In this document: positions 30,701 through 33,700 of the stretch, piece after piece
How positions within the stretch are numbered: the stretch's first letter is position 1
How the letters are laid out: every line of letters starts with the position of its first letter
Source of the DNA: Escherichia coli
GTDB lineage: Bacteria; Pseudomonadota; Gammaproteobacteria; Enterobacterales; Enterobacteriaceae
DNA length: 64,000 bases
Strand: one strand, 5' to 3'
Assembly (NCBI RefSeq): GCF_003790525.1
Contig: NZ_CP033635.1
Made by a program: the position numbers

Positions 30701-33700
30701 CAGAACAATAACAGACAGAACGGCAGCCATACCGAAGCTGGCAGCGATAGCAAAGGAGCGTTTAGCGAAGGCGAAGTCACGACCTTTCAGCATATACCAT
30801 GCGCTGATACCGAGGATGAACATCGCGCCAGTCACATAACCAGACGCTACAGTGTGAACGAATTTCACCTGAGCAACCGGGTTAAGCACCAGCTCGGAGA
30901 AGCTCACCATCTCCATACGCATAGTTTCAAAGTTGAAATCGGACGCGATTGGGTTTTGCATCCAGCCGTTCGCAACCAGAATCCACAGTGCGGACAGGTT
31001 TGAACCGAGCGCCACCAGCCAGGTGACACACATATGCTGAACTTTACCCAAACGATCCCAACCGAAGAAGAACAGACCTACAAAGGTGGATTCGAGGAAG
31101 AAGGCCATTAGACCTTCGATTGCCAGCGGCGCACCGAAGATATCCCCTACATAGTGGGAATAGTAAGACCAGTTAGTCCCGAACTGGAACTCCATGGTCA
31201 GACCGGTAGCCACACCCAGAGCGAAGTTGATACCAAACAACTTGCCCCAGAACTTGGTCATATCTTTATAAATCTGTTTGCCGGAAAGGACGTAGACCGT
31301 TTCCATAATGGCCAGCAGGAACGCCATACCGAGCGTCAGTGGCACAAAAAGGAAGTGGTACATCGCGGTCAAGGCAAACTGTAAGCGCGACAGTTCGACT
31401 ATATCTAACATCATGACTCCTTGCTCATCGCATGAAGACTCCGAGAGTGAACCCCGTTAGAAAGGGTCACACGCATGCCCCAATACAAAATTATTTGCTC
31501 GCCTCTATCGTTGCCATTTCATCAAAAGAGGAAAAGACAATGATAAAAAAGTTACAAATATGTTAATGAATAAACCAAATTGATCCCGTAATTATATTAC
31601 GCCGCAAAATCCTTACAATAAACAGGTTTTTATTGAGCAAATTTGCATTTTTCGACAGTGATCAATTTATAGCGAAATTGTCACGATCTCACCAATTTGA
31701 TCTACGACAATTTATCGTGTTTTGCAGATTTTTTTCAAGAATTAAAAATTGATTTATATCAAAACCAACCAAATATGTTAATTATGTATAAACCATAGAT
31801 CATTGGTGATTTTATTGTTAATTTATTGTGAAATATTTATGCAACACAATTATTACAATGAAAAGGTATAGATAAAAAACCAGTGTTTTATTTAACAGAA
31901 CCGCCTTATCCACTTTTTATAATACCAATTGATTAGATTAGCCAATTTGTTGCTATTTTACATAACATATTTTTATCAAAGTTAATTGATTGTTGCCTTT
32001 ATGAGCACCGGCCGTAAGCACGTTATGTTATTGTTTCATTAGTAATAATCACTTAAATGTATCGATGAAACAGGTATGACTTAGCGGGAGTGATTGTTTC
32101 TGAGTGAACAGAGACCACTTTAGCCTGATAAATGAAAAATGAGCGATTTTTGCAAGTTAGTTTTTCTATAGCCGAGTACGCTCAGCGCCTCGCTTGATTA
32201 CAATGAGGTTGCTGCTATGAGTCCTGATAATATCGGTTCGGCTGTCAATCGCTTCTCAGGTTGGCCATCTAATGATCCTCTAAAAACAGATAACGAATCA
32301 ATGACATCACCCGTGGCTGTGCAGGTAATAAAGATGATTGCCGCCATCCTTGACCCATATCGGATAGTCGTTGGAATCGATACACTTTATACAACGCAGC
32401 GCGAAACATTTACCTCAGAGAGTCAACAGCTCATTGAATCAGCATTGCAAACACTTCATGTGATAAATTTAAATAACCTGGAAACAAATCTCGATGAGGA
32501 CGGTCACTATCTGGCTTTTGGATATAACGTTGACACTCCTGACAGAATAACCGTTTCTGCTTATAATGAAAAAAAGCCTGGCTGCTATGGCCAATGTCTT
32601 TTAATACAGGATGACGAAACAGACTTATTTAACCTGATAAAAGTTAAAATTTTTGAAGCCAGGCATAATTATGTCGCTCAATTGATGAGAGATCCGGAAT
32701 TTATGTTCAAATTTAGTTATAGCGCTCAACAAAATAGATTAGAACCTCATCTTCTGGTTCCCACTTATTTCCCTCTAAAAACAAACGAACCGGTTACGCA
32801 AGAGGATGTACTGTTACTTTATCGTTTCTTTAAAATGGATGGTGATTTTAATATATTAACATCAGATGAATACATGAGTATCATGACACCTCTGATGAAG
32901 TGTGAGCGTAGCATCCACGACCACAACAGGTATGTGACGGGCAAAGATACCCTTCTTCTGGACTATCCTCCTTCTGGTAACCAGATATATTTCCATATTT
33001 TTCCTGACGAATCAGCAACACTAGTCCTTTATTTTTCAAACAATGACATTGAATGTTTCGTCTTTGAAAGAGATATTCCGAGCCAGTATCGCTTTTTCAA
33101 AATGTTTACCAATCTGGCACTGGTTATTGATCAGTTAACTGATGCCAATCAAATACTTTAATTTTTATATATTCCCTGTGGCAAATATTGCTAAACAATG
33201 CCTGGGGATTAATTTTTATTACTCACGGAAAGATTTAAATAATGATCCCATCTCAAATCTCTTTCAACACCCTTCCTGTCAATGCAACATACGCTTCAGA
33301 GACAACAGTTGACACACAAAAATTCTCTGACATCCTCTACTCAGCGGGGTGTTCCCTAAAGGATCTGGCTTATCTGAGCAGATGTCTGGCATCAATACAT
33401 CCGACTATCGCCAAAAACATTTATGAAACAGAAAATCTCAGCGATCAAAAATTACTACATATTGATTGCCGTAGTACAAATGAAATCAAGATAAATATCT
33501 TTTTTGGTCAACAACGAGAAGGATTAATTGAAATTAATTCTGACACTGTCATTTTTTCGATATTGTCTTCATTAATTGACTCCGCCATTTCTAAATTTCA
33601 ACACCAAATCCCCGTTAACGGTTCAGTTAATCGTGAACTATTGTATGAGGATTATACTGATTAAATCCACCCAGTCGCGAAAATGGCCTGCGTTATTGCC

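Follow-up and report, generated by a model that had tools for sequence, protein, structure and literature searches.

Described systems resembling the cydA-proximal gene pair

Several described systems resemble two hypothetical genes, here called open reading frame (ORF) A and ORF B, that encode proteins of 314 and 140 amino acids (aa) and lie side by side in a 64,000-nucleotide stretch of an Escherichia coli chromosome (contig NZ_CP033635.1; this whole stretch is referred to below as the window). In the pairs formed by effectors of type III secretion systems (T3SS) and their class I chaperones, e.g., Tir/CesT and YopE/SycE, AT-rich DNA likewise encodes a larger protein with a polar N-terminus and, beside it, a small acidic one. 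Two-gene defense and toxin-antitoxin modules (PADLOC-type systems and type II toxin-antitoxin loci) share with the pair the arrangement of two unequal same-strand genes in a variable spot. Lineage-restricted ORFans in AT-rich E. coli islets have in common with it the narrow taxonomic range, low GC content, very low expression, relaxed selection, and frequent pseudogenization. Finally, IcaR and IcaT of Shigella flexneri and E. coli are encoded, as are A and B, by old chromosomal genes present in a part of the Escherichia/Shigella tree (PMC9241512).

Each of these likenesses has its limits. In contrast to effector-chaperone pairs, A and B show no linkage to T3SS genes, the gene that would encode the chaperone is lost where the putative effector is kept, and the chaperone fold is not recovered. 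Unlike defense and toxin-antitoxin modules, they have no family match, mobility, or spread across genera, and the two genes are not retained together. The likeness to IcaR and IcaT extends to their production in small amounts and their chaperone-free secretion via an N-terminal signal (PMC9241512), to which the scant transcription of A and B and their signal-like N-terminal composition correspond; but A and B are without resemblance to anything known, do not occur in the K-12-type genomes seen, and have no MxiE box upstream of A. Compared with typical ORFans, they are unusually old and position-stable, and A is much longer than chance ORFs. On balance, we think that A and B are probably genuine orphan genes confined to Escherichia, old, near-silent, and eroding independently of each other, with no two-gene system shown. 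A preliminary description of this DNA had presented them as the best candidate in the window for an undescribed system, a claim that exceeds the data.

Coding capacity and selection

ORF A occupies positions 32217-33161 on the plus strand (RefSeq hypothetical protein WP_012311832; ECs0767 in O157:H7 Sakai) and ORF B positions 33242-33664 on the same strand (WP_000613114; ECs0766 in Sakai), with an 80-bp spacer, read off the sequence, at 33162-33241. The sizes, gap, and N-termini given in the preliminary description are all exact. A Shine-Dalgarno sequence GAGG (32206-32209) is found 8 nt upstream of A, and a merely weak Shine-Dalgarno-like GGAAAG precedes B within the spacer. The window is that of strain SMS-3-5, being identical to the reverse complement of NC_010498.1:731452-795451. 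The pair had been described as far more AT-rich than the surrounding core genes, and this is confirmed by a GC content of 0.32-0.42 over 31400-34200 versus 0.50-0.57 in cydAB and the glm genes.

Both ORFs are coding. In 2000 first-order Markov simulations of the 2.1-kb segment 32053-34147 (36.3% GC), the longest ORF had a mean length of 75 aa and was at most 169 aa long, while the next in length was always below 140 aa. A and B are therefore far beyond chance and have been maintained. The A proteins of SMS-3-5 and E. albertii are 64% identical with zero indels in 314 codons, and the genes have dN of 0.226, dS of 0.518, and omega of 0.44, with a synonymous excess significant at P = 1e-5. Among E. 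coli alleles, omega is 0.39-0.63 for A and 0.09-0.39 for B (P = 4e-4 and P = 2e-3, respectively, for SMS-3-5 versus AST85). Because omega is below 1, the synonymous excess is significant, and A has no indel, both genes have been selected as proteins; together with ORF length, the overall omega range of 0.09-0.63 identifies them as selected coding sequences and not chance ORFs, as is expected of orphan genes. This selection is weak; the adjoining glmS gene has an omega of 0.07-0.14.

The synonymous divergence between SMS-3-5 and AST85 is 0.16 in A and 0.22 in B, and only 0.06 in the neighboring glmS. Either a deeper coalescence of the alleles, possibly by introgression from cryptic clades, or a faster mutation of the AT-rich segment could account for the higher values.

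Taxonomic distribution

Relatives were sought by a word-indexed search of 5.8 billion protein clusters, by an exhaustive HMMER search of 1.84 billion representatives, and in one genome per GTDB species. The first search yielded five clusters for A, all alleles or fragments with 64-97% identity, and 42 clusters for B, mostly at 81-100% identity, with two frameshifted fragments at 50-59%; the organism names attached to these matches are Escherichia or Shigella only. HMMER added 14 short matches (36-131 aa, E from 5e-7 to 1e-66) to parts of A, which are taken to be pieces of gene A itself.

Among the GTDB species representatives, four loci only were found. Two are in the type strain of E. albertii, where A is frameshifted and B degraded, and in the cryptic-clade strain Escherichia sp. 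MOD1-EC7003, where both genes are degraded. The other two are contigs of metagenome-assembled genomes labeled Citrobacter sp. and Collinsella sp., which are 97-98% identical to E. coli and carry A and B at 96-99% identity; these are most likely mis-binned E. coli contigs and hence contamination. A tblastn search of a phage collection with A and B gave no match, and the three matches in a plasmid collection are all to records of 0.73-4.9 Mb, which we read as mislabeled chromosomes and hence not as true plasmid copies. Klebsiella, Citrobacter, Salmonella, and other genera reported to bear the glm cluster contain no relative of A or B in the protein and species searches. A and B are restricted to the genus Escherichia, with no homolog outside this narrow lineage in the protein, species, phage, and plasmid searches.

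Within E. coli, the pair is present in 1135 of the 5426 complete genomes and absent from 4291, nearly four fifths; the glm genes are likewise found in 1135 of them. The genomes fetched for comparison comprise O157:H7 and O145 strains, SMS-3-5, and other E. coli isolates. Judging by strain names, the sampled matches also include what we believe to be phylogroup D lineages.

Position, age, and the variable sucD-cydA interval

The pair lies between cydA and the glm cluster, and the gene order cydA-A-B is the same in SMS-3-5, O157, other E. coli, and the cryptic clade. In E. albertii the order is cydA, A, a B pseudogene, a 258-aa gene without Pfam match, and sucD, and the glm cluster is absent. 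The A-B pair is older than the split of E. coli and E. albertii and has been inherited vertically on the cydA side, with no recent insertion. Nothing indicates that the horizontal acquisition proposed earlier was recent or that the pair is mobile, given the single chromosomal position, the pre-split age, and the lack of phage and true plasmid copies. By contrast, the proposal that the pair and the adjacent metabolic cluster are of separate origin is upheld, as A occurs without glm in E. albertii and glm is reported from genera with no A or B relatives, namely Klebsiella, Citrobacter, Salmonella, and others (PMC4682846). Wherever it is found, the pair occupies one cydA-proximal locus; strict co-occurrence of the two genes does not hold, A being kept in E. 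albertii while B is a pseudogene.

The start of the query, upstream of cydA, is matched by 5425 of the 5426 complete E. coli genomes; homology to the B2 strain LF82 stops exactly at window position 32052, and in K-12-type genomes the alignment, with 81-82% identity, reaches no further than about 31787. The AT-rich stretch at 31415-32052, upstream of cydA, which we take to be the cydAB regulatory region, lies outside the module and is also present in E. coli genomes without A and B. A and cydA are divergently transcribed, and the AT-rich intergenic region is common to both. On the other side, an AT-rich spacer at 33665-34210 (30-34% GC) separates B from glmS; it contains short ORFs only (71 and 55 aa), and RefSeq annotates zero genes in it.

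The sucD-cydA interval as a whole (window 44288-32053) is a multi-state polymorphic spot in Escherichia, with four contents. It is occupied by mngR-mngA-mngB in REL606 (E. coli B, the one K-12-type genome examined), in line with the statement that K-12 carries mngA/mngB at this position; by one gene for a TPR protein in LF82; by A-B and the 11-kb methylaspartate cluster in SMS-3-5 and O157; and by A, the B pseudogene, and the 258-aa gene in E. albertii. The last of these genes (L002, 9907-10683; L019, 4407-5183; and L018) encodes a product with a signal-peptide-like N-terminus and no Pfam match. It is split into ORFs of 137 aa and 114 aa in one strain and uncalled in another, and it too appears to be decaying.

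No integrase, transposase, phage gene, or secretion-system gene is found within the 64-kb window, and repeats around the module are at chance level. A 24-nt inverted repeat with 75% complementarity (32076-32099 and 34054-34077) flanks the A-B module just inside the LF82 junction; we estimate that it is at the level expected by chance for a 9-nt seed in AT-rich DNA.

Independent decay of the two genes

The two genes decay independently. In E. albertii, B is a pseudogene in all six loci examined, with a frame break after about codon 10 and, in some copies, an additional in-frame stop, and past residue 60 or so it is unrecognizable; intact B is known from E. coli only. Five of these six loci have an intact A, and of the 15 cluster members listed for E. 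albertii, 13 have an A of 314 aa; in the type strain A is frameshifted. Within E. coli, B of O145 strain RM8995 is frameshifted at about codon 35 next to an intact A, and both genes of the Brazilian strain Br_112 are interrupted by insertion sequence (IS) elements. In MOD1-EC7003, A has multiple frameshifts and an insertion and B a deletion of about 300 bp, while the start of the adjoining glmS looks intact.

Because A stays in frame long without B, A and B do not form an obligate two-component machine. The coupled large-plus-small system of the preliminary description is thereby not supported: B is dead in six of six E. albertii loci with A intact in five, B alone is frameshifted in O145, and both are dead in MOD1-EC7003. 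Pseudogene remnants in related genomes, which that description had itself named as an argument against its proposal, were looked for and found in these same lineages.

Two homopolymeric runs lie early in B, namely A5 and G4 (33316-33322 and 33345-33349). The frame of B in O145 RM8995 breaks at the G4 run, and close to the A5 run two truncated variants from the database, P0046 and P0047, begin to differ; both runs may be slippage-prone sites.

Expression and the upstream region

Expression at the locus is very low. The RNA-seq data for strain EDL933 (Table S4 of PMC4048457) list four hypothetical ORFs, Z0896-Z0899, between glmS (Z0895) and cydA (Z0900). Their reads per kilobase per million (RPKM) range from 0 to 12 across 11 conditions, against 2-212 for cydA, and Z0899 peaks at 11-12 only at pH 9 and at 15 °C (PMC4048457). 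The supplements of two ribosome-profiling studies of EDL933 contain no entry for the A and B genes. Of the silencing by H-NS suggested previously, the near-silence is supported by these data (RPKM of at most 12 in the 11 conditions); the part played by H-NS is inferred, near-silence combined with 36% GC fitting silencing of the H-NS type. No mention of ECs0766/0767, of Z0897-Z0899 as genes, or of the WP and NP accessions was found in literature text.

The module-specific region upstream of A (32053-32216, plus strand) contains a conserved leader of about 85 nt at 32132-32216. Identity between SMS-3-5 and E. albertii is 87% in the leader and 77% in ORF A itself, which suggests a functional leader, promoter, or operator. 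A consensus scan detected no strong sigma-70 promoter in 32053-32216, and Rfam gave no match in 31000-34700.

Protein properties and predicted structure

Neither protein has a recognizable domain, as stated in the preliminary description. There is no significant Pfam match for A or B (best i-E 0.19-0.54), no NCBIfam family, no PADLOC-DB 2.0.0 family at E <= 1 (systems described after 2023 being outside its coverage), nothing below E 0.9 among PDB sequence profiles, and nothing significant in PHROGs, where the best match is one unknown-function family for B at E 0.07. The smaller protein is acidic, as claimed (isoelectric point 4.80), and so is the larger (4.64). On the Kyte-Doolittle scale, hydrophobicity over 19 residues peaks at 1.45 in A and at 1.37 in B, so that no strongly hydrophobic stretch is seen on this scale, no dedicated transmembrane or signal-peptide predictor having been run. 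These maxima are, in our judgment, below those of a typical membrane-spanning segment, and both proteins are likely to be soluble.

AlphaFold2 models built on shallow family alignments have a mean predicted local distance difference test score (pLDDT) of 42 for A and 41 for B. A Foldseek search of PDB with these models gave no match at E <= 0.001, with template modeling (TM) scores of at most 0.29. Because of the low pLDDT and the absence of such a match, no fold can be assigned, and neither the profile searches nor the fold search leads to a family or a usable fold for either protein. Fold matches to HIV reverse transcriptase, tandem SH2 domains, and Ragulator were dropped as noise, coming as they do from low-pLDDT models with TM scores in this range.

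At low confidence, the predicted secondary structure is an alpha-alpha-beta-beta-beta-alpha unit that occurs twice in A (approximately residues 32-158 and 195-308) and once in B (25-122). In the top local alignments from hhalign and BLAST, A37-57, A226-246, and B45-65 fall into a single register, with a shared motif L-x-[KR]-C-x-x-S-I-H that reads LMKCERSIH in the C-terminal half of A and LSRCLASIH in B. Comparison of B with the halves of A gives a BLASTP E of 1.8, hhalign E of 0.06-0.2, and Smith-Waterman z from -0.9 to 1.3 versus shuffles. A could have arisen by tandem duplication of a domain like that of B.

Type III secretion

The alternative that survives best, though we hold it to be unlikely, is that A, and perhaps B too, are ancient chromosomally encoded substrates of a T3SS, either the E. 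coli type III secretion system 2 (ETT2) or that of LEE (locus of enterocyte effacement), recognized by their polar N-termini without need of each other. The polar N-termini reported in the preliminary description are real: the fraction of S, T, N, P, and Q in residues 2-30 is 0.52 in B and 0.48 in A, ranks 1 and 2 among 54 non-overlapping window ORFs (mean 0.26, standard deviation 0.09; a ranking by composition only), and each protein has one leucine in its first 30 residues, in keeping with effector secretion signals, which span about 25 residues rich in Ser, Thr, Asn, and Pro and poor in Leu. Taken by itself, however, composition is weak evidence; codons for Asn, Ser, and Thr abound in AT-rich genes anyway. 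Like many effector genes, A and B are AT-rich, lineage-restricted, and poorly expressed; yet no secretion-system gene lies within the window, and the profile and protein searches show no likeness to known effector families.

The age of the pair parallels that of ETT2, which, as reported, was acquired before the split of E. coli and E. albertii, is intact in E. albertii and in phylogroup D sequence types ST69 and ST405, and is eroded elsewhere (PMC4700944, PMC7058095). Carriers of A and B comprise O157:H7, extraintestinal lineages of phylogroups D and F, and E. albertii. By analogy, A and perhaps B could be ancient Escherichia substrates which, in the ETT2 version, were co-inherited with ETT2 and eroded in parallel with it, a scenario that we consider improbable. 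O157:H7, for instance, has intact A and B although its ETT2 has reportedly been inactivated (PMC7058095). ETT2 has putative, as yet unconfirmed effectors, the eip genes. There is a precedent for old genes on the chromosome whose products are "fossil" T3SS substrates, made at a low level and independent of a chaperone (PMC9241512). The identification of A and B with icaR and icaT themselves was considered and rejected, these being different genes that are present in K-12 (PMC9241512).

There is also no good element of the MxiE-box type upstream of A, the scan having returned only matches with three mismatches inside coding sequence. Two of the four such matches in the window (0.63 expected) are inside ORF A, at 32819-32835 and 33086-33102, the latter 140 bp upstream of the start of B; they are probably a by-product of a Phe-rich, AT-rich coding sequence. 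If A and B were nonetheless secreted, they would be chromosomal type III substrates without known relatives, possibly for ETT2.

Defense, accessory, and paired functions

The combination of old age, fixed position, near-silence, and uncoupled decay disfavors an obligate toxin-immunity pair, an effector with its chaperone, and a mobile defense system alike. Still, the sucD-cydA interval is variable, its contents coming in at least four alternatives, and both genes are AT-rich and of uncharacterized function, as might be expected of a two-gene anti-phage defense module in a chromosomal hotspot. Defense systems usually spread by horizontal transfer, whereas the relatives of A and B, in a search space of about 15 billion proteins, are confined to one genus and do not occur on phages or plasmids, and the pair has been inherited vertically since before the species split, with A kept without B. 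As they moreover have no PADLOC match, no enzymatic or sensor domain, and are nearly untranscribed in 11 conditions, we regard a defense role as very unlikely.

An accessory or regulatory role in the methylaspartate (glutamate fermentation) pathway or for cytochrome bd is just as hard to credit. It would explain the near-perfect co-occurrence of the pair with glm in E. coli (1135 genomes each) and the divergent orientation of A and cydA over a shared AT-rich intergenic region. On the other hand, E. albertii has A and no glm cluster, the cryptic clade retains at least glmS beside dead A and B, and other enterobacteria from which the cluster is reported (PMC4682846) have no A or B relative. The co-occurrence with glmS, glmL, glmE, and methylaspartate ammonia-lyase is thus seen within E. 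coli only and not across taxa. As regards cytochrome bd, 4291 of the 5426 E. coli genomes are without A and B, and those A/B-less genomes that were examined still have cydAB. Neither protein has a DNA-binding or cofactor domain.

Still less probable is a classical effector (A) with a dedicated class I chaperone (B). B has a suitable size and acidity, lies directly downstream of A, and its predicted structure includes a beta-beta-beta-alpha unit. However, A is intact in most E. albertii, where B is long dead, as it is next to the broken B of O145 RM8995. B also shares the signal-like N-terminus, which is needless for a cytoplasmic chaperone, so that the presence of this feature in both proteins disfavors such a role. 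Furthermore, the predicted order in B, alpha-alpha-alpha-beta-beta-beta-alpha, is without the C-terminal beta-beta-alpha of the CesT/SycE fold (alpha-beta-beta-beta-alpha-beta-beta-alpha), albeit in a low-confidence model, and Foldseek gave no PDB match at the threshold given above.

A toxin-immunity or toxin-antitoxin pair, with either gene as the toxin, has the large-plus-small same-strand layout and the AT-rich islet in its favor, but is scarcely credible given that no toxin or antitoxin domain is found in Pfam, NCBIfam, PADLOC, or PHROGs, that both proteins are acidic, that the single-copy pair at its single locus shows no mobility, that no type VI secretion (T6SS), contact-dependent inhibition (CDI), or Rhs genes occur within the window, and that a toxin neutralized by B could not tolerate the intact A with dead B of E. 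albertii and O145.

Other features of the window

The other genes of the window are core housekeeping genes, including sdh-suc, cyd, tol-pal, a tRNA cluster, nadA, gal, and mod. The zitB gene for a zinc exporter of the cation diffusion facilitator (CDF) family (18610-19551) contains an internal stop in SMS-3-5 and is annotated there by RefSeq as a pseudogene. Between abrB and gltA, a truncated type 1 fimbrial protein gene (57568-57963) is probably what is left of a longer fimbrial operon, which in K-12 is ybgD/ybgOPQ. Inside the methylaspartate cluster, genes of the AtuA family and DUF4387 (38757-40441) are found between those for the ammonia-lyase and a dicarboxylate symporter.

Probable orphan genes in a variable chromosomal spot

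We suggest that vertical descent has kept A and B at that edge of the polymorphic sucD-cydA interval which lies next to cydA. Their products would be soluble, acidic proteins of mixed alpha/beta structure with polar, probably disordered N-terminal tails. Both genes would have come under relaxed purifying selection and be undergoing piecemeal loss, with B lost first. Their role may be dispensable and niche-specific. Our best guess for the activity, based on low-confidence secondary structure and a non-significant motif similarity, is that a repeated alpha-alpha-beta-beta-beta-alpha module, with two copies in A and one in B, would bind proteins without being an enzyme.

Several points weigh against the interpretation of A and B as eroding orphan genes. 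Within E. coli both genes are retained almost universally, and their N-termini are strikingly signal-like, which would also fit an active, condition-specific function, e.g., secretion. E. coli reading frames were checked by translation in eight loci, and the labels of the 60 sampled genomes do not separate out pseudogenes. The Z numbers of the expression data were assigned to A and B by gene order. The AlphaFold models of both proteins are unreliable, and the repeat hypothesis is non-significant, hhalign and Smith-Waterman scores being at the levels given above and the latter within the shuffle range. Finally, there is no positive support for any biochemical function of A or B.

As eroding orphan genes, A and B document a common and not surprising phenomenon, a long-lived, genus-restricted orphan pair decaying in a variable chromosomal spot. 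For annotation, this means that ECs0767 and ECs0766 should not be labeled as a system, and the locus also informs studies of orphan-gene turnover.

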